Below are positions 8,795-35,248 of a stretch of DNA of 64,000 nucleotides, in pieces. A program made the translations under genes and the position numbers. The notes under the pieces were generated by a model. It was not told the origin of the DNA, did no database searches, and worked only from the letters and a program-made list of their open reading frames with translations. Each line of letters starts with the position of its first letter. Within the stretch, counting starts at the first letter, position 1. Source of the DNA: Liolophura sinensis (Eukaryota); contig NC_088300.1 in the NCBI RefSeq assembly GCF_032854445.1, positions 60,598,969 to 60,662,968 of the forward strand. Direction: 5' to 3'.

Positions 8795-8984
8795 GTAACT
8801 CATCAATTTTACGCACCTGTCTGGCTCTGCGTGAGGACACTAACAGCCTCCTGGTGGTGGAGATGGGTGGCAAGGTGCACAACTCTGACACCCTCAAAAC
8901 CTATGATCTGGAGGATGGGCAGTCTGTGGCCACAACAGTACTTAGCAACAGGATGTGTAACATCAGACTGATAGACTCAGACAG
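8795..8984 (+). CDS. NWD1: NWD1-like exon at the start of the WD40 region (...TCLALREDTNSLLVVEMGGKVHNSDTLKTYDLEDGQSVATTVLSNRMCNIRLIDSD)
   Basis: Phase-consistent with its neighbours. Acceptor gagcag, donor gttagt at 8985. The 3' end of the exon is the seed of the downstream tandem array. Confidence 0.7.
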
Positions 8985-10260
8985 GTTAGTGTATGCTTCT
9001 TGATGACAGGTGTGAAATGGGCAACTGAATGTGTAACATCAGACTGATTGACTCAGACAGGTTAGTTTGTGCTTCTTGATGGCAGGTGTGAAATGGGCAA
9101 CTGAATGTGTAACATCAGACTGATAGACTTAGACAGGTTAGTGTGTGCTTCTTGATGGCGACAGGTTAGTGTGTGCTTCTTGATCACAGGTGTGAAATGG
9201 GCAACTGAATGTGTAACATCATACTGATAGACTTAGACAGGTTAGTGTGTGCTTCTTGATGACAGGTGTGAAATGGGCAACTGAATGTGTAACATCAGAT
9301 TGATAGACAGGTTAGTGTGTGCTTCTTGATGATGGGTGTGAAATGGGCAACTGAATGTGTAACATCAGATTGATAGACAGGTTAGTGTGCGCTTCTTGAT
9401 GGCAGGTGTGAAATGGGCAACTGAATGTGTAACATCAGACTGATAAACTCAGACAGGTTAGTGTGTGCTTCTTGATGACAGGTGTGAAATGGGCAACTGA
9501 ATGTGTAACATCAGACTGATAGGCTCAGACAGGTTAGTGTGTGCTTCTTGATGACGGGTGTGAAATGGGCAACTGAATGTGTAACATCAGACTGATATAC
9601 TCAGACAGGTTAGTGTGTGCTTCTTGATGACAGGTGTGAAATGGGCAACTGAATGTGTAACATCAGACTGATAGACAGGTGAATATGTGCTTCTTGATGA
9701 TAGGTCTGAATTGAGCAACTTCAGACTGAAAGTCTCAGGTGGGTGTGTGCTTCTTGATGACAGGTGTGAAATGGGCAACTGAATGTGTAACATCAGACTG
9801 ATAGACAGGTGAATATGTGCTTCTTGATGATAGGCCTGAATTGAGCAACTTCAGACTGAAAGACTCAGGTGGGTGTGTGCTTGTTGATTACAGGTGTGAA
9901 ATGGGCAACTGAATGTGTAACATCAGACTGATAGACAGGTGAATATGTGCTTCTTGATGATAGGCCTGAATTGAGCAACTTCAGACTGAAAGACTCAGGT
10001 GGGTGTGTGCTTCTTGATGACAGGTGTGAAATGGGCAACTGAATGTGTAACATCAGACTGATAGACAGGTGAATATGTGCTTCTTGATGATAGGTCTGAA
10101 TTGAGCAGCTTCAGACTGAAAGACTCAGGTGGGTGTGTGCTTGTTGATTACAGGTGTGAAGTGAGCAACTTTAGACTGATAGACTCAGGTGAATGTGTGT
10201 TTATTGATGGCAACAGGATCTGTAACATCAGGCTAATAGACTCAGTGAGGCTGCATGTTC
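8955..10260 (+). repeat. Tandem array, unit about 77 bp, about 16 copies, with diverged double units of about 140 bp from 9640. The unit is the last 30-40 nt of NWD1 exon 6 plus the first 45 nt of the intron, including the gttagt donor.
   Basis: The unit gtgtaacatcagactgatagactcagacag|gttagtgtgtgcttcttgatgacaggtgtgaaatgggcaactgaat recurs directly downstream of the true exon end at 8984. Confidence 0.9.
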
Positions 10261-10395
10261 AGATCGAGCTCTAGCTTACAGCTTCAGCTAATGCTTTAAA
10301 TCGAGATGTTTGTCTGGTACCCAGAAATGTTGATGGGTTACCTCAAGCACCTGTGAATAAATAAATAAAGTAAATTTACTTTCTCACCTGTGCAG

Positions 10396-10553
10396 GTATA
10401 TTCACTTGGAGTGGACAGGTGACAGGGATGATTACAACCCCACCTGTTACCAACGCCTGATCTACACCAGCTCCACCACTCTCGTCCCTCTACCCAAAGA
10501 TATCAGCTGGCTGAGTCTGTCACCAAGTGGAACTACTTTTGCTTACGCTGTTG
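10396..10553 (+). CDS. NWD1: NWD1-like exon (RYIHLEWTGDRDDYNPTCYQRLIYTSSTTLVPLPKDISWLSLSPSGTTFAYAV)
   Basis: Acceptor ctgtgcag, donor gtaagat. The frame continues from the exon ending at 8984 across the repeat-filled intron. Confidence 0.7.
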
Positions 10554-10770
10554 GTAAGATATCTTCTCTTCGCCCTGACACATATTCTGTTCACACCTCA
10601 CAGATACATGCATTGTTTTGAGAGATGGATTAAAGGTGACATTTTTTGATAAAGTTGTTGTTGTTAGTAGGCATCTCCTGTTCTTGTATAAGATTGTTTA
10701 AATTACCTTTTGTTGTAACAATTACTACCGTTGAATTTGCTTTTATTTATTTCATTTTCATTGCTTTTAG

Positions 10771-11671
10771 GAAATAATGTTTTTGTGCGACGCGGTGATT
10801 CCATTCTAAAATCAAGAAGAGTAACAAAGGAAGTAAAATTAAGTCAAACTGATTCCGTAACACACTTGGTTATCTCCCCTGATGACAATTATCTCGTCAC
10901 AACAACACTAGAAAATAAACAGTTTGTCTGGGAACTGGAAACTAACAGCTGTCTCCATGAATTGGGAAGTGCAGAGAAAAGTTTTGCCGGCAGCAGCAAG
11001 GACCTGCACTGCGTTCACATCACCAAAAAGAACTGGTTGATCTGTCCCGGGCTGAATTACAATACAAGGAACCAGATTTATGTGACAAATATAGAAACTG
11101 GGGAAAAAGTGTGTGAATTAAAGGGAGCAAGCAGCCATTACAGTATCGAGTTAATACGTATAAATCCTAGAGAAAATATCGTCCTTCTGGCAACTCGTGA
11201 CGACTGTGTGATCAACGGCATTGAGGATAAGTGGGGGATGCTGTGGAACCTGGAATCTGGAACGTTGTTGTCACAGTGCTCTGCTGTCAATGGCCCTTAC
11301 ACTGAGGTCAAACTGGTCGAGGATGGTGACGATATGTTTGTTATCTTGTGTGAAAAGCGCAGCCCTGTCATCAATATCCTGTGGGCTGGATCGGAGTCGG
11401 ATCCGTTAGAGACGGCGGTTTTGGTCCATGTTCTGGTAGCCCACAATGATTCTATCATACAGCTGGTCCTGAACGAGGACATACTGGTGTCAGCTTCACA
11501 AGACAACACTGTGAAGGTGTGGGACTTCAGAGAGATCAGGGCGGAGCTTCAGAGCCGGGTGCAAACAGCGGAATCACCAGAGGAAGCCAAGTTTTGCCCA
11601 TCCTTAGAGGAAGGAAAGCTACCAGTGCCGGGTAGGGATCAGATCAAAACCACAGCCATGGTAGTCTGCGA
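10771..11671 (+). CDS. NWD1: NWD1-like WD40-repeat exon (about 300 aa, ...NTVKVWDF...)
   Basis: Long open frame matching the 10731..11675 ORF track. Acceptor cttttag, gtaagt donor at 11672. The exon ends in phase 2 and continues in frame into the exon at 12970. Confidence 0.7.
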
Positions 11672-12969
11672 GTAAGTAATCTAAGGAGAATCACGATTGA
11701 TTGCAGGAATGATTTAAATAGTTATGTTTGATTTAGGTTTTATCTGATACTATTACATAATGCATTAGTCACATGGTTACTCAGTGATAGGATACAGAAA
11801 TATATGGTGTCAGTAACCTTTACTATATATTTACATGTGTCCTGTCTCTTAGTAACCAAGTTATTAGTTTATTATAATATTTTTCGGGATAATATTACAT
11901 GTGTATACATGTACATTTGTGGTCAACATCAAATATTATACTAGCAAGCAATAACATGTCACCCAAAAATCGGTTTAGTCTCGCAATACAAAAGATGGCA
12001 TGGGATACCATTACTTCTGTGAGGAACTTAAATTTTTTTCTTTATAGTGTGGTAAAACAAGGATGGGAGGAATTGAGTCAGTTTCAAACCAGGTAGATTA
12101 ATAAAGGCCAGGTGCATTTTTCTGTGTGGAAGTTGCTAGTTTCATCGTGATTCTTTTAGACTTTCATTGTTGTGGTGTTGTACACAGTGCATGTAAATGT
12201 TATGTTATATTTCACTTAAAGGGAAAGACCTCTAAAAATCGAAGTAGGCATCACCAGGTGGACCGCTAAAAACTTATGCTCAAATATATTTACATTCATT
12301 TTTTTAGATTTTTGAGAAAAGAATTAAAGGGGCTCAATCATTTAACTTCTAAGGAGGGTTTTGTGGACCATACCATCAGAGGTTATGAACTCTGACATCA
12401 CAGGAAGTTTGTCCAACTCTAATCTTGACAATGAATGTTGGAATAACTCATTTTACCCATGAGTGAAAGATTACTGAAATAATGTTCCCAATAATTCCTT
12501 CATTCTGGTGAACATAAGAAAAAATGGTGATGTGACGTCAGAATTGCTGGATACCATCAGTGTGGCTCATAAAACCCACCATTGTTTTCAGATATTTGAA
12601 TGCCTTTCAACACTGTCAAAAAAATCTAAAAAATAAATGAAAGTATTTTTACACATAGTTTTCAATTGTCTTTATGAGGAACCTTACTTCATGTTTTAGC
12701 TTTCTTTTACTTTAGAGTTGACACCCTGGTGGTAACTGAGCCTGGGAATCTCAGACACTTCACCAATATCAAACCTATATCAAAATATAATCAGTATATT
12801 ATGTTCACTTGTGGCTTTAAGTCAGGAGGTGTCATAAACTCCTGGTGAAGTGTCATGGTTTCCCCGGTCTCTACCCAGTTTTCCCCACCCATAAATTTGA
12901 CTCTTATCGTGAATAAAATAAGCACCATATCAAAGACAGTAAATTGAGTACTCATTTTCACTCTTCCAG

Positions 12970-13151
12970 GAACCGAGCTGTGGTTGGCAGCAAGGATGGG
13001 TTCCTGATATTTTATGACCTGGTCACCTGCACACAGTTGGGTCACATCAGGCCATGCACAACTGAGATCATTGGTATACTGGTTACGAAGAACAAACAGC
13101 ATGTTGTGGCTGCATCTCCTAAGTCACTTTTCATACTGGAATCTAATGGAG
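12970..13151 (+). CDS. NWD1: NWD1-like WD40 exon (NRAVVGSKDGFLIFYDLVTCTQLGHIRPCTTEIIGILVTKNKQHVVAASPKSLFILESNG)
   Basis: Acceptor ctcttccag, donor gtaaac. Phase-consistent with its neighbours. Confidence 0.7.
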
Positions 13152-13304
13152 GTAAACATAGTGGGTACTGCCTAGATTTGCTAATGCATTCCCTAAAACT
13201 GCTAACCTTTGTATCAAAAAGTGTGCAGGGCTGAACATAAACTTCATACAAGTGGTATTGATGGATTCTTTGGGTAAATCTGAGACGAGTTAAAGGTATT
13301 CATA

Positions 13305-14595
13305 TGGGTGGGTCATATTCAGGTGGGTCTGAGGGATTGTTACAGCTCGGTCTGAGGGATTTGTACAAATGGGTCATTGCAGGGGTAGAAATGACGTCTG
13401 TCTACCTGTTGGCGACAGGCAATTTTTATCGGCGACAGGTCACAAAAAAACTCAGCTGTTGCAGCGACAGTTAGACACAAAAAGTTTTCAATCATGTTTA
13501 AGTCAATATCCATGCATGTCTGTGTTTCTGAAGTCTGTATATTTACTAGGCCTTTCCATAATCAGAATGTTGATGCAAAACTTCGTCATGTTCGGCCCAA
13601 ACAAGTGAACACTGTTAGGACGTCATCTAGTGGACAAGGCCTTCGTCAACGAACCTATCGCCTTTATGCTTTCAATTCCGAGACCAAACATACCTTCAAC
13701 ATTGAAGAACGCGCTTCGGTTATTACAGCAACAGCAAAATCAGATCTGCAAAAAGCCGTTTTTGTTACGTAAAATGCCTTTTGTAACACTTTTTCTTAAG
13801 GGTCCACAGCTATCCTGGAAGGAATAGTGTCTACAGGTGCCACTCAACCTGAACTAGAGAACAGTCAAAGGAGAGCAGCGAATCAATCAAAAGTTGAAGT
13901 GTCACCCATGACTCAGAAGTTTCTCAACATTGCATTTGCAGAAGATTAAATCAAATAAATAAATAACAAAATGTGAAATTAATATATATAGTCTCGGCCT
14001 CTTCCTAACGCCCAAAATTGTACAGCTCTAAGACCACATTGTTTACTTTTCTCGCTCGAGGACTATGCGTGGCATTGCAGGTGTAAAGGGGAACAACTCA
14101 AGACACACATAAATCTAAACGCACACGACAGAGTGGTTTTCCTCGGTCGTTTCCCTTGAATGGGAAGCGCATGCATACGCAAGCACAGACTGAACTGTCG
14201 GAAGTAAGTTTCAATTTAATTGATCGACTGTGCAGAAGTCCCAATCATGACAGAATATTGAATAAAAAGGAAAATGGTACTGAAACCAAATATTCTTGTA
14301 ACACAGTAGACTGATATTGCTTTGCCAAGGTGACGGTGTTGACAGAAAATTTTATGTTCACAAAAATGTGACAATGGCGACTTTCTAAAAGTAACACTGA
14401 TGGGGACAGGTGACTGGTAGAAAAAAAATCTACCGGTTTCTGTGACAGGCGGTTTTAAAAAAACACCTCTTGGTCTGAGGAATTTGTACAGCTGGGTCAG
14501 AGGGATTTTGTACATCTGGGTCAGAGGGATTTGTACCGCTTTGTCCGAGGGATTTGTACCGCTTGCTCTCAGGGATTTGTACCGCTTGGGGTGAA
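13305..14595. mobile_element. Putative transposable element or composite repeat in an NWD1 intron, with a CpG-rich unique core flanked by related end blocks
   Basis: Shared blocks (gg)tctgagggatttgtacag repeated 2-4 times plus a gacaggtSac motif at 13310-13445 and 14400-14590. The core 13450-14400 is unusually CpG-rich for this window and carries unassigned ORFs 13494..13772 and 13630..13827. Confidence 0.35.
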
Positions 14596-14737
14596 AGATA
14601 CATATAGGCATAATTACTGTACATGTACTCTGATTAGAAAATGTGCCGGTTGTAAATATACCGGTTCAGTGAAATGTAGTTATGTCAAAAATACCAGAGA
14701 CTTGTGTCTGTATCTGTGAAAAGATTTCAGGGTCAAA

Positions 14738-14900
14738 ATGGGGCCTCCTTAGCTCAGTTGGTTTACACGCTAGCGCAGCGTAATGACCCAGGAGCCTCTC
14801 ACCAATGCAGTCGCTGTGAGTTCAAGTCCAGCTCATGCAGGCTTCCTCTCCGGCCGTGTGTGGGAAGGTTTGTCCATAAGCTAGCACAAATGTCAGTTTT
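14738..14900 (+). mobile_element. tRNA-derived SINE, family A, copy with intact tRNA-like head (ggggcctccttagctcagttggtt...gagttcaagtccagctc)
   Basis: Box A-like TAGCTCAGTTGG and box B-like GAGTTCAAGTCC. The body ctcatgcaggcttcctctccggccgtgtgtgggaaggt is shared with more than 12 other copies. Confidence 0.8.
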
Positions 14901-14951
14901 GTGGTAAACTGTCCACACGTGTGCTTATACCTGAATCACATCTTTCTTACA

Positions 14952-21082: not shown

Positions 21083-21190
21083 TTACTTTGTTTTTCCCAG
21101 CAGTCCTTGAGCAGTGTTGAAAAGGTTGATAGGACTGTTTCCGTCAGTCAGCAGTACACTCTCCAGACCAAGGGATTTCAGCATCTGTAC
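21083..21190 (-). CDS. MVP: MVP exon 25, terminal, with stop ([35 protein letters not shown])
   Basis: Matches human [32 protein letters not shown]. The TAA is at 21085..21083. Confidence 0.9.
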
Positions 21191-21229
21191 CTGGAAAAGG
21201 CCACATGAAGAATTTGGAAGATAATATCT

Positions 21230-21350
21230 TGTATTTATTTATTTATTTGACTGGTGTTTTACGCCATACTTCAAGAATATTTCGCTTTATGACGTGGCCA
21301 GCATTATGGTGGGAGGAAACCAGGCAGAGCGTCTATATCTTGTAAGCTGA
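21230..21350 (-). mobile_element. SINE family A copy in reverse orientation
   Basis: tatttatttatttgactggtgttttacgccatacttcaagaatatttc...ggccagcattatggtgggaggaaacc. Confidence 0.8.
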
Positions 21351-21787
21351 ATGTCCATCTTAAATACATGTACGTACTTAACCTGCTCTTAGTAACCTCA
21401 AAGTTATCCTGTAACAGACTGCTGGAACTAAACATTAGAGCATGGGCAACAGCTGAGCCGCAACTTCACAAACAGGGGCCAAGGGTTTCATAATCCTGAG
21501 TAAGTTCAACCCTGTGAAGATATGTCAACCTCAACACCTGTCTGCCACAAGGAAACACTAACAGGAGATGAACACCAACTGGTTAAAACCTGTTCGTTTC
21601 AGTCCTAAATCTGTAAAAACTGAAAGTTCTGACAAGCTAACACCATGTTACGATAAGTCGAACTTTCAAAGCTAGAAACTAAGCAATGTAAAGAACTACT
21701 AAAATCTGAATTAAGAAAAAATGGTTATGTTCAGTTATTGTACATTTATCTCTAGGGCCGCCAGAGAATCAAGGCAATATTTTTTAC

Positions 21788-21868
21788 CTCCATTTCTGGT
21801 CCCGATGTGGCTATGGCAGAGATGGTGTCAGCTCCCAGGGTGTCCACTATGTCACTGAACTTCTTCAC
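21788..21868 (-). CDS. MVP: MVP exon 24 (VKKFSDIVDTLGADTISAIATSGPEME)
   Basis: Matches human [27 protein letters not shown]. Confidence 0.9.
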
Positions 21869-22319
21869 CTGTGATAAAATAAGTACACATTTTTAATATA
21901 GCTTAGTTATTTACATTCAGATTTTCTTCACTGTATTCCAGGTGCCTTGCATGTTTAAAATGCACGACATAACACCAGATTACCCAAATTGAAGATGTAT
22001 GTATGCTTGAGGTTTTATGTCATACTTAACAATTTTTCAGTCATATGACATCAAACCAATAGTTAAGAAGAGTTTCGTGATAGCAGACAAGACCTGAAGG
22101 AATTTATGACACTTTTTAATAATTAATTAGAATTAGTTGTGCCAAAAATTATTGTATAAACTGATGGACATACATGTAACAATGCCATACCTTAAAACAA
22201 TCCATATGTATGTATTTATTTATGTATGCTTTGCGATTTATGTTATACGTGTACTTAACAATTTTTCGATCATATGACGACGACGACGAGGTGTGTGTAG
22301 ATGTACTGTGTCTTCTTGT

Positions 22320-22545
22320 AACAGGGAAAGTCCACGCCACCAAAGTGCTGCTGCCAATGAATTATCATGCTGAAGACACCAGACAAGACACCCCATCTAG
22401 TCACATTATATTGACACCGGGCCAACCAGTCCTATTTTATTACTGTAATCTTTCAGTGTTGAGTGCTAAGTGAGGCAGCAACAAGCACTGTTTTTAAAGT
22501 CTGGGTTTGATCCCAGGTCTCTCAACTTCTAAAACCCATAATGCA
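22320..22545. mobile_element. SINE family B copy
   Basis: gtgctgctgccaatgaattatcatgctgaagacaccagacaagacacccc...ggccaaccagtc...cagtgttgagtgctaagtgaggcagcaacaagcac...ctgggtttgatcccaggtctc. Confidence 0.75.
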
Positions 22546-23159
22546 GGTTTTTTTAAGTACTTTAAAAAATGTTGAGCAGTGTACTTGATGTGAATACTTC
22601 ATACATGTGTACCTCAGTCATCATGTCTGTGACTGGAAAAAACGAAAGTGCCTGGGGATAACCACAACTTGTTAGGTATCTGACAATAAACCTCCTCACC
22701 TTATGCGAGATCTAGTCAGCAACCCCATTAGTCAGAAAATTGGTCACCGTTCAGCACCTGAACTGAATGAGCCGGAAAGGCCTTTTAAATGAGAACACTT
22801 AACTCTTAACTTCTACTCAACATCACACATGCAAGGCCCAGTTCTTCGAAAGTGCATTAGCTGATACTGGTATTAAGCCATATTCTATATTTAAATTTTA
22901 GCCAAACTCAGCAGACAAATCAGTTCTCCAAAGTCAATAGCAGCAGTTTGACTTCACATTTAATATACTGGCGTACATTTTTTTTTAGGTTAAGTACAAA
23001 ACTGAAGACTGGGCTTAAAGTCAAATCTGGTTCAAGTCTTAAATCAGTTTTAATCAGCCAAGCCCTGAAATATTTCTATATGCTGCATCCACTCTACATT
23101 TTCTACAGGTTGTTGTTGAACACACCACTTAACAGAGATACCTTGTGATCAAACCTCAC

Positions 23160-23240
23160 CTCAATGCAAGATAATTCTCTGCATTTCTCCACTTCCAGAT
23201 CATTCATTTCTTTTCTGTAGGAGAGTTCAGATGATCTCGT
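23160..23240 (-). CDS. MVP: MVP exon 23 (TRSSELSYRKEMNDLEVEKCRELSCIE)
   Basis: Matches human [26 protein letters not shown]. Acceptor tttaag, donor gtgagg. Confidence 0.75.
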
Positions 23241-23289
23241 CTTAAACAGAATGAAAAAAATAATGAACAAGCATTTGGGGAGTACACTG

Positions 23290-23770
23290 AAACAGATGGG
23301 CTAAAAATGAGCTACAACTGAGCCAGTTGGACAACAGCTGAGCCGCAACTGAGCCAGCTGGACAACTGAGCCACAACTGAGCCAGTTGGACAACAACTGA
23401 GCTGCAACTGAGCCAGCTGGACAACTGAGCCACAACTGAGCCAAATGGACATCAACTGAAGCCAGTCGGACAACAGCTGAGCCAGCTGGACAACAACTGA
23501 TCCAGTTTGACAACAGCTGAGCCGCAACTGAACCAGCTGGACAACTGAGCCACAACTGAGCCAGTTGGACAACAACTGAGCCAATTGGACATCAACTGAA
23601 GCCAGTTGGACAACAGCTGAGCCAGTTGGACAACAACTAAGCCAGCTGGACAGTAACTGAGCCAGATGGACAACAAGTTTCAATTACAAAGCTAGCTGGA
23701 CAACATCTGAGTCAGTTTGACAACAACTAAGCTGGCTGGACAACAACTGGGCCACAACTGAGCCAGTTGT
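23290..23770. repeat. Minisatellite of about 20 bp, CTGAGCCAGYTGGACAACAA-like, in MVP intron 22
   Basis: Degenerate tandem periodicity. The minus-strand ORFs 23242..23683 are repeat artefacts. Confidence 0.85.
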
Positions 23771-23923
23771 ACAACAACTGCATATATTAATGACATTACC
23801 ACTGACAACTGAAAACATGAGAAAGAAATTGTAAACAGCTATGATTTATATGCATTCAATGTGGAAACTGTTCAACAAAATTAAGAGATTTCACACTGAG
23901 AAGAACGTGTACAGAGGTGTGCT

Positions 23924-24140
23924 GACAAACAACTGAGCACTCACCAGATCTTGTATGCTTACAAACAACTGAGCACTCACCAGATCTTGTATGTTTACAA
24001 ACAACTGAGCACTCACCAGATCTTGTATGCTTACAAACAACTGAGCACTCACCAGATCTTGTATGCTTACAAACAACTGAGCACTCACCAGATCTTGTAT
24101 GCTTACAAACAACTGAGCACTCACCAGATCTTGTATTTCC
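23924..24140 (-). repeat. Tandem array of six 36-bp units duplicating the MVP exon 22 donor junction (ATACAAGATCTG|gtgagtgctcagttgtttgtaagc)
   Basis: Perfect or near-perfect 36-nt periodicity, contiguous with the real donor at 24125. The minus-strand frame stays open through the array, as in ORF 23891..24205. Confidence 0.9.
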
Positions 24141-24189
24141 AGCTGTGAATAGTGCTGAATTTCCTCAGCCTGTGCCTTCAGTTTGGCAG
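24125..24189 (-). CDS. MVP: MVP exon 22 (AAKLKAQAEEIQHYSQLEIQDL)
   Basis: Matches human QAKLKAQALAIETEAEL. The donor gtgagt is followed by six tandem in-frame copies of the junction. Confidence 0.8.
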
Positions 24190-24399
24190 CTGTAACAGAA
24201 GACACAAATTATTATAATTATTTTTTTTGGCAATTGTTTTTTTACCTTCCTGATTTTCTGATATTTTTCTCTACATTCTCTAATAATAAATGCTAAAAAT
24301 CACTTTTGATATGCCATCATGGAGCTTCTATTTTGTCAGTAATTTGGCTATTAGTTTTTAAAGGTATAGGATTTAACAAGGGGGCGTTTTCATCCCACT

Positions 24400-24535
24400 G
24401 CCAACATTATAGTTCTTTTATCTATTCAGTTTTTTATTTGATTGGTGTTTCACACGGTACTCAAGAATATTTCACTTATATGCCAGCGGTCATCATTATG
24501 GTGGGAGGGAACAGGGCAGGGCATTATAGTTATTA
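24400..24535 (-). mobile_element. SINE family A copy in reverse orientation
   Basis: ttatttgattggtgtttcacacggtactcaagaatatttcac...cattatggtgggagggaacagggc. Confidence 0.8.
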
Positions 24536-24717
24536 TGTCAGTACCTAACATTATACGCTTGTCTTAAGGCATATGTAGTGAGTTGCCTCAAGCTTCCCAG
24601 ATGCCAAATCTGAGTTTGGCATAATAAGCACTGTCCACAGTGTCATAAGGAAATCCATTTTTAGACCAAGAAGCTATTCTGAAACATCTATTTTAATGAC
24701 TGTGACTGAGGAAAGAG

Positions 24718-24965
24718 ATGCAATGAACCAGGAGCCTCTCACCAATGCTGTCTCTGTGAGTTCAAGTCCAGCTCATGCTGGTTTCCTCTCCGGTCATACA
24801 TGGGAAGGTCTGACATTAACCTGTTGAGGGACATGGGTTTCCCCCAGGCTCTGCCCAGTTTCCTCACACCATAATGCTGGCCGCCGTCATATGAGTGAAA
24901 TACTCTTGAGTACGGCGTAAAACACCAATCAAGTAAATAAATAAATAAATAAATAAATAATGGTC
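24718..24965 (+). mobile_element. SINE family A, near full-length copy with (AAATAA)n tail
   Basis: Body ...gggtttcccccaggctctgcccagtttcctcacaccataatgctggccgcc...cttgagtacggcgtaaaacaccaatcaagtaaataaataaataa. Confidence 0.85.
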
Positions 24966-25120
24966 AAGAGTTATGATGGGCTGACAACAGAAAATTAGTT
25001 CAGTCAAATAAGCCAGCCAGGGTGCCTTCTCCACAGTACTAATGCTTGATAATCATCAACTGACTAGTAACTGGGAATGACACTTTATTTACACATACTC
25101 CTCTCTAATAACCTCCTTAC

Positions 25121-25347
25121 CCTCGATCTCACTGGTGCACTCTATCCTTGTCTTCTCAGCCTCGGCTTGAGCTTCAGCTTTTGCTTGTCCCGTGGATTCC
25201 ACAGCCGACGTCACAGCCCGCAACTCGCACAACGTGATTCTCGCCTTCTCTGCCTCTTTCTCATTGGCCAGTTTCTGGCGCTCAAGTTTTCCTCGGGCAG
25301 CTTGTTCCATTCTCTTGGCTTCATGTGTAGCAGCTGCCTCTATAGAA
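25121..25347 (-). CDS. MVP: MVP exon 21, coiled-coil region ([76 protein letters not shown])
   Basis: Matches human [73 protein letters not shown]. Acceptor cttaag, donor gtaagg. Confidence 0.9.
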
Positions 25348-25579
25348 CTTAAGAAATCAAGAACTTAAGGTTCAAAACCTTTCTAAAAATCAATAAACTG
25401 AAGAGAATCTTTTCACACGAGACAGAATAAGTCACTCATAAAAGCAAATTCATTTTGGTGTCTGAGACCATTTTTTCCTCTCAGAACAACATACCCGTCA
25501 TATCACTACCCAATAACTTGTGGTATAAAGAAGTGGAAAATAATAGTATAAAAAAATTTTCAGTAATTCAGAAACTTAC

Positions 25580-25680
25580 TTAGTTGCGATCTCAATGGCC
25601 ATCTGAACAGACTTCATCAAACTGTCTCTCATCTTGAGGTCTACTGGTTCTATACTCTGGATGTCAATACTTGTGACCAC
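25580..25680 (-). CDS. MVP: MVP exon 20 ([33 protein letters not shown])
   Basis: Matches human [34 protein letters not shown]. The acceptor side abuts a junction-derived tandem array. Confidence 0.9.
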
Positions 25681-26310
25681 CTGGTAACAGAATACCATGG
25701 ATTTTAATACATGTGACCAACTGATAACAGAATAGTTCTGGATATCAATACTTGTGACCAAATGATAATAGATTACTCTGGAATTCAATACATGTGATCA
25801 ACTGATAACAGAATAGTTCTGGATATCAATACTTGTGAAACCCTGGTAACAGATTACTCTGGATGTCAATACATGTGACCAACTGATAACAGAATAGTTC
25901 TGGACATCAATACTTGTGACCAAATGATAATAGATTACTCTGGAATTCAATACATGTGATCAACTGATAACAGAATAGTTCTGGATATCAATACTTGTGA
26001 CCACCTGGTAACAGATTACTCTGGATGTCAATACATGTGACCAACTGATAACAGAATAGTTCTGGACATCAATACTTGTGACCAAATGATAACAGATTAC
26101 TCTGGATGTCAATACATGTGACCAACTGATAACAGAATAGTTCTGGACATCAATACTTGTGACCAAATGATAATAGATTACTCTGGATTTCAATACATGT
26201 GATCAACTGATTACAGAATAGTTCTGGATATCAATACTTGTGACCAAATGATAACAGATTACTCTGGATTTCTATACTTGAGATCAACTGATAAAAGAAT
26301 ACTGTGGATG
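25681..26310 (-). repeat. Tandem array, about 40-bp units in an 80-bp higher-order repeat, about 15 copies. It duplicates the first 29 nt of MVP exon 20 plus the acceptor ttaccag.
   Basis: Units such as attactctggatgtcaatacatgtgaccaa|ctgataacag recur upstream, in the gene sense, of the real acceptor at 25680/25681. Confidence 0.85.
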
Positions 26311-26603
26311 TCGATGCTTGTGTGATGGCCTGGTAAAAAAAATAGGTATCATTACTGTCATTACTCTGGATGTCAATACTTGTGACCAACCGATAACAGA
26401 ATACTTCTGGATATCAATATTTGTAACCACCTGACAAGAGAATACTTCTGGGTATTAATACTTGTCAGCATATGACAACAAAATACTTCTGGATATCAAT
26501 TCTTGTGACATAACAAATGATAAGAGAACACTCCATATAACATTACATGTACATACACGTATTACTGGCACTTACTGGCAAGCCCCATCAGACTTCAACC
26601 TAC

Positions 26604-26734
26604 CATGTTGTTCACATCAAATCTGAGCTGAGGTTTAGGAGGATTTCCAAACACCGCAGAATGGATGATGTCAGAGGAGTGACGATGAAACTCATCAAAT
26701 GTCACCTGGGCTACAGACGCTCGGATACAGCTGC
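26604..26734 (-). CDS. MVP: MVP exon 19 (GSCIRASVAQVTFDEFHRHSSDIIHSAVFGNPPKPQLRFDVNNM)
   Basis: Matches human [28 protein letters not shown]. Donor gtaggt. Confidence 0.85.
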
Positions 26735-27308
26735 CTGTCAATCAAATAAAAATAATCCAACCTTTGAATCAATAAGTTCAATCAGCACAGGTAAAGGAGC
26801 GGTGCCTGAATCAGAATCTGATAATACTGAAAAACGGTTGTGAGAAATATGGCAATGGCCGACCTACTTCACAATGGAGATTACTGCAAGCTTTAACTAG
26901 ATAATGTAGACTGAGTGAGTATGGCTATTACTACTGAAGTCATTAAACGCAACACACAAGCTGATAAATAATACAAGAAAATTTTAACCTCTTCCAAAAA
27001 AAATGTAAAGAAAAAATACTCCCCATTATATTGCAGATGTGACCTTATACCATTGTATGTGCTTATGGGAAAAATATAAAACAGTAACTCTCCTCAGCCT
27101 CTCGCCGTGAGTTTGCTGAATATTGCTGACACAGAGTTAAATCATAATCATTCATTCATTCATTCACTCATTCATAATAACCTCTAAGATTGTCCATTTA
27201 AGGAATTCATTTAACTGTTGTTGTTTTTTTTGTATCTAAATATACTGTGCATGTACATAAGCCACATGTAGCAACATCACCTGTTACAAACAATTCAATT
27301 GCATTTAC

Positions 27309-27387
27309 CTATTTGTCTGCAAGCAAAGCCGATAAAATCCGGTATAGCAAATATTGCTAGCTCAGACTCCTTCTTCCCTCTTGTGAA
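27309..27387 (-). CDS. MVP: MVP exon 18 (FTRGKKESELAIFAIPDFIGFACRQI)
   Basis: Matches human [29 protein letters not shown]. Confidence 0.85.
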
Positions 27388-27536
27388 CTGTTGTTAATAA
27401 AAGAATGGAACAAGTATTAAACCATAGCAGAAATTTTGTTTGTTTGGGAAAAAAAAGCATATGTATCACCTGTATACTGTGGAGGTGTAGGTGTATATAA
27501 AACAGAAGAAACACACAGAGATAAACAACCCCAAGT

Positions 27537-27563
27537 ATGGTTTATATATATGTATATATATAT

Positions 27564-27614
<51 letters not shown>

Positions 27615-27616
27615 TT
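27537..27616. repeat. (TA)n microsatellite
   Basis: Runs of tatata. Confidence 0.9.
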
Positions 27617-27877
27617 ATACAAATATTCAAATTTCTGTATTTTACCCAAAGTTTAGCATTTTTCAAGTGACATGGTTTGCTTGATTCTGATTGATTCATC
27701 CACCTTATAGGGCCATGTAAGAGTTTGTTGTGAAGTTCAGAAATATCCAGACAAACTTAAAATTGTTGGCATCAAAAGTATCATTTTACTGCACTTATTG
27801 CCTCTGAAAGTGCATTTTCACAAGCCAAACTTCAGGTGATTGACAGTACATGAAGGCTTACAAGTGCTGTTTCTCAC

Positions 27878-27937
27878 CTCAAAATGATTATTGAAGGCTA
27901 TCTGAAGTCTTAGTCTGGCATGGTCAGAAGTCTCCAC
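27878..27937 (-). CDS. MVP: MVP exon 17 (VETSDHARLRLQIAFNNHFE)
   Basis: Matches human [20 protein letters not shown]. Confidence 0.85.
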
Positions 27938-28134
27938 CTAGATGGAAGGGAGGTAAATCTGGCAGGTTATACTAAATGAATACATATACTGTACTGTTCT
28001 ACTCAAAATATCACTTTGACTGTAACCATTATGATATTACACAATGCACAAGTTATTTAAGAATTCAGCTGCTTGAATGTGAAATATGCCACACAAAAAT
28101 GACACAGTAACATTTATTGGACTCACATCCCCAT

Positions 28135-28340
28135 AATAAAATTGATTTATTTATTTTATTTATTTGATTGGTGTTTTACGCCTTACTCAAGAATATTTCA
28201 CTTATACAACGGCAGCCAGCATTATGGTTGGAGGAAACTGGCTTGGGGAAACCCACGACCATCCGCAGGTTGCTGGCAGACCTTCGGCCGGAGAAGAAGC
28301 CAACATGAGCTGGACTTATACTCACAGCGACTGCACTCAA
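28135..28340 (-). mobile_element. SINE family A copy in reverse orientation
   Basis: Tail (TTTATT)n, then gtgttttacgccttactcaagaatatttcac...gccagcattatggttggaggaaactgg...gagctggacttatactcacagcgact. Confidence 0.8.
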
Positions 28341-28686
28341 CGAAACACTGTGGAAAGTTTGTTTCCTCATTTTCTCCCCAAGTATTATGACTCATCCCCT
28401 CCCCACCTCACCCCACCCCAAGTAAAACTACTCTGTTTTCCAGGTAAAATAACTCATTTTCCCTTACGTAAAACTACTTTTTTCAATTAAAATGACTCAT
28501 TTTTCCCCAAGTAAAACTACTTTTGACTCCAAGTAACAATGGCTCTTATTTTCTCATGTAAAATAATTCAAACAAACAAATATATGTAATAACATATACA
28601 TGTATGTCACCCTGCTGACCTCCAGACAAAAATGATCAGTAACAAGGGTATTTACAAACTCACTCGTAATGACTAATCACACATAC

Positions 28687-28766
28687 CTCAATTATATCTG
28701 AAATAAAATCTGGCCCCAACATCAAGCATATAGATTTGAGGGCATTGGGCTTTTTGGGCTTCCCGG
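28687..28766 (-). CDS. MVP: MVP exon 16 (AGKPKKPNALKSICLMLGPDFISDIIE)
   Basis: Matches human [29 protein letters not shown]. Confidence 0.85.
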
Positions 28767-29311
28767 CTGAAACATAAAAATTCTGATTGATTGTCTTCAT
28801 CACGCATGCATAACAGTCAATATGTAGTCAGCTAATGCATGTGGTAACACTCACTATAGAAAACATGAACAAAGGGGTTCTACCGTTTATTTATCTGTTT
28901 GTTCGAGATTTACTTTGTTCTCCAGAATATTTAATTACTACACGTATTTTGGGAAATATCGCTGAAAAAAAGCAACAGTCAAATGTGAACCAATGGAAGC
29001 TGGATTCAAGTCTGTGACCTAATTAGTCAAGACCCAATGAGCCGTGGCCAGATTTCAAACTTGAAGTTGCATTCACATTTGATTGGTCAATTCTGTAGCT
29101 ATTATATAATGCATGCACTCATTTAAATATTACAGATTTGTCCATCACCAATGAGAAAGGTGGATAAGCGGGTAAAGGATTAAAATATTTATTTATTAAG
29201 AACTCTTGGTTTTGCTCCTTTCTATGAACTGTATGAACTTTCTATGTGCTTGTAACTCAATATTGTGAATGACCTTTACCCATGTAATTGATATGATAGG
29301 GTATAACTGAC

Positions 29312-29465
29312 CACTAAGACTGAGGACACTGAAGTTTTCATGAGGTCCCAGGATAACCAGCTCTGGTCCAAACACAACCCGAGCGCTCTTTTGTTGGTAG
29401 TTATAAACCTGTACAGCCGTGTTGCCAGGGCAACGGTATGTCACCACGCGACTTTTGTTACGCCC
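29312..29465 (-). CDS. MVP: MVP exon 15 ([51 protein letters not shown])
   Basis: Matches human [50 protein letters not shown]. Overlaps the minus-strand ORF 29196..29474. Confidence 0.9.
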
Positions 29466-30369
29466 CTGAAGCAAAAAGTCAATGGGAAATTATGATTTCC
29501 TTCACATCCACGATCAGGTAACACTGTAGTTTAATATAAAATATATTTGTCAAACTGTCAAGCACATGTACATATACAATGAGATAAGTTTCAGCATAAG
29601 AATGTATATTTGATAAAGCTGCACAAAGAAACAGGAACAGGTTCTATAGATGTTGTTTGAGTGGAAAAACTATTATGACATAATGAACTGTTCACATCAA
29701 CAATAAAAGAGCCCACCAGGGACAAAAACACCAGTGGCTAATTATTGTGACCACTGTGGTCCCGGTGGTGCTATTCTGCCCTAGCATTAAGTCAGGTGGT
29801 TTGTCAGGTGTCTTACGTGTGCACGTGTGGTACTTTCTGCACTTTCGTCTTTTCTCTTTCATGGACAATACAATTTTTTTTTGTATTTTAGAAGCCACTC
29901 AACATGAAATAAGCCAAAAATGGAATTAAAATAAACCTGAAAAATCCACCTGAATATCTTGTCCAAAACATGCTTTCATCAACTTCCTGTTTGTGAAGAT
30001 TTTTCAATCATGTAAGGATTTGAACAGGAAAATTTACCTGGGAAAGTCCACATTTTCCTCAGTTTAGATGTTTTTCAAGCTTTCTAAATATTTTTATGCC
30101 CTGCCCCGCCACAGAAAATAAGATTTATTCCATCTTTAAAACAACAATTACTTAAAATGATGTGTCCTTTGATCAAATATTCTTGAATAGGGACTACACC
30201 AAATATAAACACTTGCAAACAATTCCTTAGATTCATATCCTGCCAGATGTTTCAATTTTGTGTGGGAGTACAGTTGAATTGTTGAGAATGACGATTCCAG
30301 GCATGTGTGGGGGAAGGTTAGATGTGTATCATCTTAAAACACTGTGATGTTTCTTTTGTTTTTCAATAC

Positions 30370-30448
30370 CTGGAGGATTCCTGGATCAATAGACTGCTCA
30401 AAATAGGCAACTTTTCGAATATCTTCTGAGCCAATCCCTCCTCCTTGT
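30370..30448 (-). CDS. MVP: MVP exon 14 (RQGGGIGSEDIRKVAYFEQSIDPGILQ)
   Basis: Phase-consistent with exons 13 and 15. Weaker similarity, in a region that varies between species. Confidence 0.6.
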
Positions 30449-31215
30449 CTGGATATAACCAAAAAAAAACAACAGCACAGTTAGATAATTCTGATAGAGG
30501 AAATAAAATAAGAAATGAAATAAAGGTAATGTGATATAGATTTTATTGTTACAAGACTTTCAGACTTTACCTGAGAAAAATAAAAAACAAACAAAATAAA
30601 AACAGATAAGCAGCTAGATTTAAAATCAAGAGTCATAAAAATACATCTTTTTTTGTTTGTTTGTTTGTTTGGGAATTCACATTACTTTGAACATTATTTT
30701 GTTGACATTACTGGCACATTTATCATACTTACTCACTGAAATGCCATGACATAAGCAGATACCAGACATGCCCTACACAACATGCATGTACAGTATACTG
30801 ACAAGCCAGTGAATACTCTCCATTAAGACTAAAAAGGTGCATTCTGGGATTGTAATTTCCTCATCATGTCAGAGCATGAAAATCTGCCACTTTACCGGTT
30901 CAATTTTCCATGATGAGGGCTGCCACAGTCGTAAGCTTCAGGCTGAGTCGACATGCGATATACATTTTAGATTTATTTATACTGATTTGAGGCAGGGCAG
31001 AAATTAAGCCAGCAGTGTCTTTGCGGCTAATGGTAAAGTTGAGTCACTAAGATGTGCAGGCTTTGTTTTATTTATTTATTTATTTGATTGATGTTTTACA
31101 CCGTGTGCAGGCTTTGTAGTTGGCCTTACAAAAATCCTCATGCATGGAATTACCAAGACTGTTCAAATTTGATAAAGTATTTTAGTCTGGGAAAATTGTT
31201 ATTGCAGGTACAAAC

Positions 31216-31310
31216 CTGAGCAACTGTTCAACAAGATCAGAAAGAGGCTTTTCCCATAATTCCTCAAACTCTGTCAACATGTAAGAATCGGGACCGTGCA
31301 CAGCTCGCAC
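31216..31310 (-). CDS. MVP: MVP exon 13 (VRAVHGPDSYMLTEFEELWEKPLSDLVEQLL)
   Basis: Matches human [31 protein letters not shown]. Confidence 0.85.
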
Positions 31311-31610
31311 CTAAAAACAGGGGACATACATGCGCTAAACATCAGACTATACACACATATATTCTATACAAAAAGTAAATCAATCATACTCAAGTCTACT
31401 TCAGATAAAAAAATTGCAACTTGTTTCCAAGAAGAAAGACTTAATTCCAGATGAACAATGGCAACACAAGATTCACACCAAAATAAGCCTAACTGATAAA
31501 AGACTGGTGTAATAGCGCCTGGTAAAGCATAAGAGATCGCCACCAGTACAAACACCTTCATGCAACTGAGATTCTTAAAAATGAAGTTGACTGATCAGCG
31601 CGTGCCTTAC

Positions 31611-31671
31611 CGCCCCTGTCTGGACATCTCTGACGTATACCCCCTCATTCTCACTCAGGGGAATCTTCTCT
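31611..31671 (-). CDS. MVP: MVP exon 12 (REKIPLSENEGVYVRDVQTGA)
   Basis: Matches human [21 protein letters not shown]. Donor gtaagg. Confidence 0.85.
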
Positions 31672-32184
31672 CTGCAATGAAGTATGCATTAGGGGGCAAT
31701 TTATTATCATACAAACACTAAAGGAAAGGACGGCTCAAAAGTGTTGATAAATCATCAATAAGAGTAGCATTCCTGAGAACTGTTACATTCACACTCTTTG
31801 TTTTCTTATAATATTTTCAAAGAATTACATATACATAGTCAAATGTATTAAGCAAACAAGTAAACATATAGCCTAAGGTTATACCAATCTTATTTTGTGT
31901 TTTACGAGCAAGCAGATACTAAAAAATCCAAAATTGGAATAAAAAAAAACTGAAAATTCACTTTTCATTTTGTTTGATTTTGCTTGGTAATTTTATGATT
32001 TTCCTGTTTTTCAAAGCATTCCAATAATGTAAATATGTGTTTTTTAAGCTGTTGCTTTTTATATACTTTCCTCGGACATTGGAATAAGATTTATTCTGCT
32101 TGTAAAAAGGAATTTAAAATGAATGTGGCCAAACTGTAGACTTAGCTAACATGGTTCAACCCACAGTGTTCTCAGTTCTCCAGA

Positions 32185-35178
32185 TAACAAGGACCTCATC
32201 ACTAACATACATGTACATCTATCTCTCATCAATGATGTTAAGCTCAATAGGGGGAATATATTCACAAGGACCTCATCACTAACATACATGTACATCTATC
32301 TCTCATCAATGATGTTAATCTCAATAGGGGGAATATATTCACAAGGACCTCATTACTTACATACATGTACATCTATCTCTCATCAATGATGTTAATCTCA
32401 ATAGGGGGAATATATTCACAAGGACCTCATCACTAACATACATGTACATCTATCTCTCATCAATGATGTTAAGCTCAATAGGGGGAATATATTCACAAGG
32501 ACCTCATCAATTACATACATGTACATCTATCTCTCATCAATGATGTTCAGCTCAAAGAGGGGAATATATTCACAAGGACCTCATCAATTACATACATGTA
32601 CATCTATCTCTCATCAATGATGTTAAGCTCAATAGGGGAATATATTCACAAGGACCTCATCATTAACATACATGTACATCTATCTCTCATCAATGATGTT
32701 AATCTCAATAGGGGGAATATATTCACAAGGACCTCATCACTAACATACACGTACATCTATCTCTCATCAATGATGTTAAGCTCAATAGGGGGAATATATT
32801 CACAAGGACCTCATCAATTACATACATGTACATCTATCTCTCATCAATGATGTTAAGCTCAATAGGGGGAATATATTCACAAGGACCTCATCAATTACAT
32901 ACATGTACATCTATCTCTCATCAATGATGTTAATCTCAATAGGGGGAATATATTCACAAGGACCTCATTACTTACATACATGTGCATCTATCGCTCATCA
33001 ATGATGTTAAGCTCAATAGGGGAATATATTCACAAGGACCTCATCACTAACATACATGTACATCTATCTCTCATCAATGATGTTAAACTCAATAAGGGGA
33101 GTATATTCACAAGGACCTCATCAATTACATACATGTACATCTATCTCCCATCAATGATGTTAAGCTCAATAGGGGGAATATATTCACAAGGACCTCATCA
33201 CTTACATACATGTACATCTATCTCTCATCAATGATGTTAATCTCAATAGGGGGAATATATTCACAAGGACCTCATAACTTACATACATGTGCATCTATCT
33301 CTCATCAATGATGTTAAGCTCAATAGGGGGAATATATTCACAAGGACCTCATTACTTACATACATGTACATCTATCTCTCATCAATGATGTTAAGCTCAA
33401 TAGGGGAATATATTCACAAGGACCTCATCACTAACATACACGTACATCTATCTCTTATCAATGATGTTAAGCTCCATAAGAGGAATATATTCACAAGGAC
33501 CTCATCACTTACATACATGTACATCTATCTCTCATCAATGATGTTAAGCTCAATAGGGGGAATATATTCACAAGGACCTCATCACTAACATACATGTGCA
33601 TCTATCTCTCACCAATGATGTTAAGCTCCATAAGAGGAATATATTCACAAGGACCTCATCAGTAACATACATGTACATCTATCTCTCATCAATGATGTTA
33701 ATCTCAACAGGGGGAATATATTCACAAGGACCTTATCAGTAACACACACGTACATCTATCTCTCATCTCATCAATGATGTTAATCTCAATAGGGGGAATA
33801 TATTCACAAGGACCTCATCACTAACATACATGTACATCTATCTCTCATCAATGATGTTAAGCTCAAAGAGGGGAATATATTCACAAGGACCTCATCACTA
33901 ACATACATGTGCATCTATCTCTCCCCAATGATGTTAAGCTCAATAGGGGGAATATATTCACAAGGACCTCATCAATTACATACATGTACATCTATCTCTC
34001 ATCAATGATGTTAATCTCAATAGGGGGAATATATTCACAAGGACCTCATCACTTACATACATGTACATCTATCTCTTATCAATGATGTTAAGCTCAAAGA
34101 GGGGAATATATTCACAAGGACCTCATCAATTACATACATGTACATCTATCTCTCATCAATGATGTTAATCTCAATAGGGGGAATATATTCACAAGGACCT
34201 CATCACTAACATACATGTGCATCTATCTCTCACCAATGATGTTAAGCTCAATAGGGGGAATATATTCACAAGGACCTCATCAATTACATACATGTACATC
34301 TATCTCTCATCAATGATGTTAATCTCAATAGGGGGAATATATTCACAAGGACCTCATCACTAACATACATGTACATCTATCTCTTATCAATGATGTTAAG
34401 CTCAAAGAGGGGAATATATTCACAAGGACCTCATCACTAACATACATGTGCATCTATCTCTCACCAATGATGTTAAGCTCAATAGGGGGAATATATTCAC
34501 AAGGACCTCATCAATTACATACATGTACATCTATCTCTCATCAATGATGTTAATCTCAACAGGGGGAATATATTCACAAGGACCTCATCACTTACATACA
34601 TGTACATCTATCTCTCACCAATGATGTTAACCTCAATGGGGGAATATATTCACAAGGACCTCATCAATTACATACATGTACATCTATCTCTCACCAATGA
34701 TGTTAAGCTCAATAGGGAGAATATATTCACAAGGACCTCATCACTTACACACATGTGCATCTATCTCTCACCAATGATGTTAAGCTCAATAGGGGGAATA
34801 TATTCACAAGGACCTCATCAATTACATACATGTACATCTATCTCTCATCAATGATGTTAAGCTCAATAGGGAGAATATGTTCACAAGGACCTCATCACTT
34901 ACACATATGTGCATCTATCTCTCATCAATGATGTTAAGCTCAATAGGGGGAATATATTCACAAGGACCTCATCAATTACATACATGTACATCTATCTCTC
35001 ATCAATGATGTTAACCTCAATGAGGGGATATATTCACAAGGACCTCATCACTAACATACCGGGATACATGTATATACACAAGGACTTCATCATGAACATA
35101 CACTTTACCTCTGGTCAATGATGTTAACCTCAATAAGAGGATATATTCACAAGGACCTCATCACTAACATACATGTAC
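32185..35178 (-). repeat. 3 kb tandem array, 78-bp unit, about 39 copies. It duplicates the 3' 45 nt of MVP exon 11 plus the donor and the first 22 nt of the intron.
   Basis: Minus-strand unit gtccttgtgaatatattccccctattgagcttaacatcattgatgagag atagat gtacatgtatgtaattgatgag. It is contiguous with the true exon 11 donor at 35179. The plus-strand ORFs inside the array are periodic artefacts. Confidence 0.9.
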
Positions 35179-35248
35179 CTCTTGTCAATGATGTTAACCT
35201 CAATTGGGGGGATATATTCACAAGGACCTCTAATCATCCATCTGTCAC
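35179..35248 (-). CDS. MVP: MVP exon 11 (GDRWMIRGPCEYIPPIEVNIIDK)
   Basis: Matches human [25 protein letters not shown]. The donor gtacat abuts the 3 kb junction-derived tandem array. Confidence 0.8.

Follow-up and report, generated by a model that had tools for sequence, protein, structure and literature searches.

Minisatellites across exon-intron boundaries in the NWD1-like and MVP genes of the chiton Liolophura sinensis and in MVP of other lophotrochozoans

We analyzed a 64,000-nucleotide stretch of the genome of the chiton Liolophura sinensis (GCF_032854445.1, contig NC_088300.1, positions 60,598,969 to 60,662,968; hereafter the window), which holds an NWD1-like gene on the plus strand, the major vault protein gene MVP on the minus strand, a BUB3-like gene on the plus strand and DPCD on the minus strand. 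Four tandem arrays in the first two of these genes, here called A1 to A4, are our subject. In all four, every repeat unit is part exon and part intron, and each array is contiguous with an authentic splice junction. Tandem Repeats Finder (TRF) recovers the four arrays where an earlier note on this DNA had placed them, with units lying across real junctions that are exact in MVP. The gene names NWD1 and MVP, also given there, agree with the protein map and with Pfam. The note's figure of about 13 tandem arrays was too low: TRF gives 25 arrays of period at least 10, 17 of them with at least three copies. Together these arrays make up 18.6% of the window, and four of the 25 extend into an exon.

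Anatomy of the four arrays

The translations of the minus-strand exons, once joined, matched the NCBI entry 'major vault protein-like [Liolophura sinensis]' (P0001, 850 amino acids). Mapped back to the window, this protein aligns at 100% identity to 25 minus-strand exons from 43880 to 21086. All 24 introns have a unique GT-AG solution that yields the exact P0001 protein, and the three MVP junctions discussed here are therefore exact. The MVP coding region (21086..43880, minus strand) hosts A2, A3 and A4, and the NWD1-like gene (3455-17118, plus strand; Pfam hits to NACHT, HTH_NWD1 and WD40) hosts A1. TRF reports periods of 76/60/130 bp for A1, 36 bp for A2, 41/81 bp for A3 and 77/71 bp for A4, always head to tail and in 6 to 40 copies. 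The unit that carries the authentic junction is the outermost one, being the first in A1, A2 and A4 and the last in A3. A probe of 30 + 30 nt from each of the 48 MVP junctions was compared with the introns of that gene next to it, and only the junctions of A2, A3 and A4 stood out (z = 25-40).

A1 occupies 8945-10249 on the plus strand according to TRF and unit decomposition, and its donor, cag/GTTAGT, lies at 8984/8985 (the slash marks the splice cut). The exon part of its unit is the last 40 nt (...SNRMCNIRLIDSD-R) of an NWD1-like exon that we read from the sequence at 8795..8984, the start being approximate. The array is built of 19 units and a terminal partial copy, in a 76-bp type and a 69+61-bp pair that forms a 130-bp higher-order repeat (96% identity). 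It takes up 1.27 kb of a 1.41-kb intron (8985-10395). The A1 junction rests on reading frame, Pfam domains and ortholog alignment and not on an annotated chiton protein: the open frame runs on into the exon starting at 10396, the neighboring exons carry the NACHT, HTH_NWD1 and WD40 domains, and there is a gap-free alignment to a 1798-aa NACHT-HTH_NWD1-WD40 protein (P0262; NIRLIDSDR/YIHLEW vs NIHLCGEGR/FLKLDV). The far end of A1 (10208-10249, plus strand) is a 42-nt copy that comprises the exon part and nothing of the intron part; unrelated intron sequence lies beyond it. This terminal copy is nearer the real exon (CAACAGGAT) than the interior copies (CAACTGAAT) are.

A genomic contig of a related chiton (L001; Logan SRR26493808, 4402 bp) is 72-86% identical to window positions 66-4963. 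The match covers an exon of the NWD1-like gene with the non-coding DNA around it and ends short of all the arrays; the orthologous NWD1-like locus is therefore present in another sequenced chiton sample. A homology search with a chimeric query (NWD1 WD exons plus open reading frames (ORFs) of the arrays), which was swamped by WD40 proteins, returned no chiton NWD1 protein and no foreign array ORF among the 120 matches listed.

A2 (23920-24136, minus strand; TRF and unit decomposition) lies across the donor ctg/GTGAGT at 24125, which ends MVP exon 22 (AAKLKAQAEEIQHYSQLEIQDL; 24125..24189 in the exact exon map). Its six 36-bp units, 98% identical, each combine 12 exon nt from the end of exon 22 with 24 intron nt. 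With a length divisible by three and no stop in frame (minus-strand ORF 23894-24208), the unit would add VSAQLFVSIQDL per copy if spliced in. The same intron 22 contains a second array, at 23308-23748 on the minus strand, with about 20 copies of a 20-bp unit (TGTCCAACTGGCTCAGTTGT). This array has an 11-mer in common with the intron part of A2 (E = 0.014) and contains CAGCTGG, also found in exon 22. It may descend from the exon 22 junction as well, as an older array that has since degraded.

A3 (25656-26511, minus strand; TRF and unit decomposition) is the acceptor-side member of the set. Its authentic acceptor, ctgttaccag/GTGG, lies at 25680, where MVP exon 20 begins (25580..25680; exact exon map and conservation). 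Its units, about 20 in number and 39-42 bp long, are arranged as 81-bp dimers; they combine the first 25 nt of exon 20 with 15 intron nt and fill 0.83 kb of the 923-bp intron 19 (26603-25681). The distal units are the most diverged, and a copy at 26386-26363 still encodes VTSIDIQS exactly.

A4 (32187-35231, minus strand) was delimited by TRF, unit decomposition, an identity profile and donor scores. It lies across the donor gag/GTACAT at 35179, the end of MVP exon 11 (VKIDREPGDRWMIRGPCEYIPPIEVNIIDK-R; 35179..35269, from the exact exon map and conservation), and its unit joins the last 52-53 nt of that exon to about 20 intron nt. With the authentic unit included, 40 units make up about 3.0 kb of the 3507-bp intron 11 (35178-31672). 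Unit 1 is the authentic one and measures 71 bp, unit 2 measures 74 bp and has a strong donor (gag/GTAAAG), and unit 3 is a truncated copy. All of units 4-40 measure 77 bp and carry a 6-bp insertion (ATAGAT) precisely at the cut between exon and intron. The interior copies are 95-97% identical to their own consensus and only about 82% to the authentic unit, with a higher-order periodicity of 384 bp. A4 terminates in a 12-nt partial unit (TGAGGTCCTTGT), and therefore an 11-12-nt direct repeat brackets the array. Such a bracketing repeat fits slippage or unequal exchange between short direct repeats. No microhomology of this type was found at A2.

The earlier note had raised a link between such arrays and intron expansion. 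The proportions bear this out, as A4 accounts for about 3.0 of 3.5 kb, A3 for 0.83 of 0.92 kb and A1 for 1.27 of 1.41 kb of the introns in which they lie.

Descent, independence and splice signals

Did exon ends give rise to the repeats, or were exons assembled from repeats? Across 12 metazoans, from chiton to sea star and salamander, the peptides encoded at the three MVP junctions are conserved and show no insertions or deletions, and the exon parts at these junctions are conserved from cnidarian-grade distance to vertebrates. The exon part at the NWD1-like junction is likewise coding sequence that aligns to its ortholog with no gap. Because the junction peptides are conserved without such changes, the comparison of sequences shows the repeats to be descended from the exons and not the reverse.

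The arrays also arose separately. Within the window we found no copies of the A1-A4 units outside their own arrays and no cross-matches among the four units. Since the units are unrelated and lack dispersed copies, A1 to A4 are independent local tandem duplications, that is, four separate local events. The earlier note had proposed just this, and had named a common transposon origin as the observation that would speak against it. We looked for such an origin in the window and did not find one. The ages of the arrays differ as well: A2 copies are 98-100% identical to the authentic unit, whereas the A4 interior stands at about 82%. Unequal exchange and concerted evolution typically leave the traces seen here: higher-order repeats (of 130 bp in A1, of 81 bp in A3 and of 384 bp in A4), interiors that are homogeneous and edges that have diverged. 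DNA folding revealed no excess hairpin potential in the A1-A4 units, with z-scores from -2.0 to +1.2 and the A2 dimer alone mildly low. On these scores we rejected hairpin-driven slippage as a general cause.

We scored splice sites with a position weight matrix (PWM) built from the 24 real MVP donors and acceptors. The copies in A1, A2 and A3 repeat the GT or AG signal, and the homologous donor in A4 is mostly lost. The A1 intron contains 10 cag/GTTAGT donors including the authentic one, that is, nine identical pseudo-donors, together with about 30 other donor-like sites; all eight copies matched by the junction probe have the GT intact, and direct reading of the interior copies shows an in-frame TGA. 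In A2 all five pseudo-donors are identical to the authentic ctg/GTGAGT by PWM and by probe counts. The A3 scan gives two pseudo-acceptors near-identical to the authentic site and eight others at 8.3 bits, with the AG intact in 11 of 17 copies. In A4 the homologous donor falls from 5.4 bits in the authentic unit to -0.5 or lower in 37 of the 39 copies, in which the 6-bp insertion is predicted to disable it; unit 2 scores 9.3 bits. The claim that cryptic splice sites had been multiplied 6 to 39 times therefore stands for A1, A2 and A3 and fails for the homologous donor of A4. Units of A1, A3 and A4, whose lengths are not divisible by three, would shift the frame if used. At all three MVP junctions the NCBI protein model uses the authentic copy, the one with the intact exon.

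The remainder of the window holds further repeats. The BUB3-like WD40 gene lies at 46.8-53.1 kb on the plus strand, and DPCD runs from 57.8 to beyond 63.7 kb on the minus strand. The last intron of DPCD (donor near 61562, acceptor near 57931, minus strand) is 3.6 kb long, and 3.4 kb of it is an 85-bp x 41 array at 57993-61416. With splice-like motifs in its unit, this array was a candidate fifth junction array; we rejected it, as it stops short of both junctions and has no resemblance to the exons on either side. DPCD provides a further example of an intron swollen by a minisatellite. Arrays at 38431-38580, 39533-39635 and 40046-40210 were likewise considered as junction-derived, and reading of their sequences shows otherwise. 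At least 13 copies of a dispersed element of about 190 bp, resembling a short interspersed nuclear element (SINE), occur on both strands of the window at 69-90% identity (676-863, 5044-5226, 21232-21320, 24746-24954, 28146-28335, 37792-37970, 52728-52851, 61830-61973 and others); it is also present in the related-chiton contig (277-363). No Rfam family reached its gathering score anywhere in the whole window.

Junction arrays in MVP of other lophotrochozoans

As an independent sample we took the MVP loci of nine other lophotrochozoans, mapped their exons in the same exact way and ran TRF; with the chiton these form a pool of ten MVP genes. Seven of the nine have at least one junction-spanning array. 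There are seven such arrays in Argopecten irradians, four in Ostrea edulis, two each in Haliotis asinina and Patella vulgata, and one each in Mercenaria mercenaria, Gigantopelta aegis and Owenia fusiformis. The Owenia array engulfs about 1 kb of the exon side and looks like a larger duplication that took in exon sequence. Littorina saxatilis has none, and Saccostrea echinata has none beyond a marginal 4-nt overlap. Read from the sequence, examples are ctacattcctagagctgatgtg/gtgagtaggct in Haliotis (31 bp x 9.6) and ctattctgtactatacag/gtgatcagcagt in Argopecten (57 bp x 86). Lineage-specificity, which the earlier note had considered possible, is at odds with this distribution.

The scallop gene is an extreme case. 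In Argopecten MVP (locus L006, 25045-51530), a single gene has seven junction arrays, and tandem arrays make up 64% of its span. Its 4740-bp intron 23 has been filled from both ends, by a donor-side array of 40 bp x 89 and an acceptor-side array of 45 bp x 24. Another acceptor array, at 33248-38348 of the same locus, is 5.1 kb long, and 79 of its 88 copies match a 24-nt junction probe exactly.

Junction arrays appear to be short-lived. None of the four junction arrays of Ostrea was present in Saccostrea (L010) when we sought them there, and this absence indicates fast turnover. Three orthologous junctions have each been struck independently in two species: the donor of A4 and an Ostrea donor, the acceptor of A3 and an Argopecten acceptor, and an acceptor in both Mercenaria and Argopecten. 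The remaining arrays lie at mostly different junctions. At the donor orthologous to that of A4, the Ostrea array is an independent one of 58 bp x 2.5 (locus L005, 13125-13272; …EYIPPIEVRVVKIR/).

Among the junction arrays of the pooled genes, 14 are on the donor and eight on the acceptor side, and exon sequence makes up between 0.33 and 0.69 of the unit. The copied GT or AG has been retained as well as the neighboring bases in 21 of 22 arrays, the exception being A4. Because these dinucleotides are as conserved as their neighbors, the copied sites have not been eroded by selection.

Boundary-spanning minisatellites: precedents, origin and consequences

The earlier note regarded arrays of this kind as undescribed in any genome. 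They have been described: in amphioxus as 'mirages', and in human F7, IFI6, CBS, LMNB2 and PDGF. Mirages are minisatellites in the amphioxus genes for Adh3, troponin C, the globins BflGb6 and BflGb9, and PGBD5 (PMC3087553, PMC3902484). Mirages were first reported by Cañestro et al. (2002, as cited in PMC3087553 and PMC3902484); the Adh3 case is among the earlier ones cited by Ebner et al. (PMC3087553), and Pavelitz et al. (2013; PMC3902484) added PGBD5 and troponin C. Ebner et al. (PMC3087553) described AG/GT signals in the mirage copies, normal splicing, length instability and concerted evolution with diverged edges, and proposed mirages as a route to new introns. That mirages leave splicing undisturbed in amphioxus is reported in both studies (PMC3087553, PMC3902484). 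In humans, Borensztajn et al. (2006; PMC1557585) described a 37-bp minisatellite in intron 7 of F7 whose first monomer lies across the boundary (4 + 33 nt), and listed further cases in IFI6 (6-16; 25 pseudo-sites), CBS intron 13, LMNB2 and PDGF intron 4, with the donor reiterated 5-25 times. Mutagenesis of F7 showed that, of several identical donors, the one farthest upstream is selected through 5'-to-3' scanning, and human IFI6 and CBS use their first pseudo-sites (PMC1557585).

Judged by their sequences, the chiton arrays show every structural criterion of boundary-spanning minisatellites. Like mirages, they are tandem units across an exon-intron boundary, contiguous with the real boundary and affecting 5' and 3' boundaries alike; their units fall within the 10-160 bp range and contain AG/GT signals, their interior copies evolve in concert, their edges diverge, and several genes of one genome are involved. 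They differ in host, being found in a chiton and other lophotrochozoans and not in a cephalochordate, and in copy number, which reaches 40 in the chiton and about 89 in Argopecten. Moreover, the length polymorphism, somatic instability and normal splicing of amphioxus mirages come from experiment, whereas the chiton arrays are known from the sequence of a single haplotype. A2, with 12 exon nt, 24 intron nt and identical donors, is a close structural match to the human F7 repeat; in A4, unlike F7, the copied donors appear to be disabled by the insertion. Also unlike the listed human cases, which are all donor-side, A3 is acceptor-side, and an explanation by 5'-to-3' scanning does not apply to it directly. 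A different precedent is the tandem genomic duplication that yields a new intron or alternative splice sites (the Rogers model, vertebrate ATP2A1 and potato RdRp; PMC3265369, PMC4974935). There too a duplication containing splice signals yields extra usable GT/AG. However, in those cases an exonic AGGT segment is doubled once and a new intron results, whereas the chiton arrays multiply an existing junction many times within an existing intron, with no new intron or exon evident. A limited literature search found no report of junction-spanning arrays in molluscs.

A1 to A4 are very probably ordinary intronic minisatellites of the mirage type, whose overlap with junctions reflects chance and tolerance and requires no targeting of exon ends. 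A founding segment of 36-77 bp would have happened to straddle an exon-intron boundary when it was duplicated in tandem, probably by replication slippage or unequal exchange. The one copy still joined to the exon body, the first for a donor and the last for an acceptor, would go on working as the real site. The remaining copies would sit in the intron and be removed with it, which should make the duplication nearly neutral, as the human F7 experiments support. Unequal exchange would then have enlarged and homogenized the arrays, by which the introns gained 0.2-3 kb. Several arrays could be expected here, since the genome abounds in minisatellites, as do those of other lophotrochozoans, and an exon edge occurs in its genes every few hundred bases; geometry alone would place about one array in ten across a junction.

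How far does the number of junction arrays exceed this expectation? The earlier note favored a mechanism seeded at exon ends, and a dedicated or biased mutational process, in which junctions, or transcription or splicing there, stimulate tandem duplication or expansion, would predict an excess. The window alone seems to provide one, with four junction arrays against 0.6-1.7 expected from random placement of founding units (nominal P = 0.001-0.08), but the count is biased upward because the window was singled out for looking unusual. The ten pooled MVP genes contain about 135 arrays, of which 21-22 cross a junction. Random seeding would give 11.2 when the founding unit is equated with the smallest TRF period and 16.4 when it is equated with the best-scoring one, a ratio of observed to expected of 1.3-1.9 (P = 0.001-0.12). 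The excess loses significance under the best-scoring period (P = 0.08-0.12), and once Argopecten is left out, 15 arrays stand against 10.3-13.9 expected (P = 0.08-0.42). Junction arrays are thus at most about twice as frequent as chance would have it. The three junctions struck independently in two species would also fit a predisposed exon end, but about four such coincidences are expected by chance (21 events on 48 junctions, C(21,2)/48). Nor are wholly intronic arrays drawn to exons: they are about uniformly placed, without clustering near exon ends (mean relative distance 0.46 vs 0.5). The variable exon share, the involvement of donors and acceptors alike, and the lack of a common motif or hairpin signal in the A1-A4 units also speak against a process acting at exon ends, and we consider it unlikely.

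Several observations nevertheless weigh against chance and tolerance as the whole account. With the smallest TRF period as founding unit, the pooled ratio is 1.9 (P = 0.001), and the null model hinges on that choice of period. Among arrays with at least 10 copies, the junction excess is 2-4 fold and grows with copy number, and junction arrays have a median of 8.9 copies against 3.2 for other intronic arrays (P = 0.026); both results favor an exon-end process. The excess comes largely from Argopecten, though perhaps not from it only, and sampling outside the window covered one gene family, MVP. The 42-nt exon-only copy at the end of A1 is not predicted by a single simple duplication of an exon end and intron start. 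The silence of the copied splice sites in L. sinensis is something that we infer. Finally, the A4 variant that was amplified is the one with the destroyed donor, which hints that very large donor arrays are perhaps not fully neutral.

These points leave room for a bolder statement, which we put forward tentatively, as a minority possibility: that boundary-spanning minisatellites are pervasive and fast-turnover features of lophotrochozoan genes (about 5% of MVP junctions, up to 14% in the scallop), rank as a chief cause of the inflation of introns, and show a genuine 2-4-fold excess among large arrays. If so, arrays anchored on a selected splice junction would expand or persist better than others, possibly because they are kept uniform by conversion from the conserved authentic copy. 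How 3' splice sites are selected could then be tested on natural cases, the acceptor-side arrays in which tens of identical pseudo-acceptors lie upstream.

Could the arrays instead be functional splicing modules, giving alternative isoforms or unproductive transcripts that tune expression? The 36-nt unit of A2, open in frame and with five donors identical to the real one, would suit the former role, and A1 units, with acceptor-like and donor-like sites and an in-frame TGA, resemble poison exons; the use of first pseudo-sites in human IFI6 and CBS (PMC1557585) provides a precedent. However, the arrays are not conserved, differing among species to the point that those of Ostrea are absent from Saccostrea. 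Three of the four arrays (A1, A3 and A4) have units not divisible by three, the annotated MVP protein uses authentic sites only, and both the amphioxus mirages and the F7 repeat are reported to be silent (PMC3087553, PMC1557585). A role as splicing modules is therefore very improbable. Least credible of all, and hardly worth entertaining, is an artefact or foreign element (assembly collapse or expansion, a transposon or satellite with captured exon fragments, or exon ends recruited from an older satellite): repeats are the usual site of assembly errors and a dispersed SINE-like element is present in the window, but the copies vary in structured ways (subfamilies and higher-order repeats) unlike collapse, the published L. 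sinensis assembly (which may not be the source of the window) used PacBio HiFi reads with a mean of 8.3 kb that exceeds every array (PMC11068029), eight other independent assemblies show matching architecture, the four units are unrelated and without dispersed copies in the window, and the conservation of the exon parts from cnidarian-grade distance to vertebrates places the exon first.

What do boundary-spanning minisatellites of this ordinary kind mean for the genes that carry them? They indicate that an essential, conserved gene can tolerate tens of copies of a splice junction beside the original without being disabled, and they widen the range of such repeats from amphioxus (mirages) and humans (the F7 type) to molluscs and perhaps an annelid. 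They are also traps for gene prediction, as exact copies of exon starts lie in introns; the A3 copy at 26386-26363 was mistaken for an exon in our initial mapping. Since the arrays make up most of the length of several introns here, they matter for intron growth, and new exons or introns may arise from them, as has been suggested for the amphioxus globins. Their interest lies in their prevalence among lophotrochozoans and in the large acceptor-side arrays, of which chiton A3 and the 5.1-kb scallop array would be ready material for tests of 3' splice-site choice, as natural splicing experiments.

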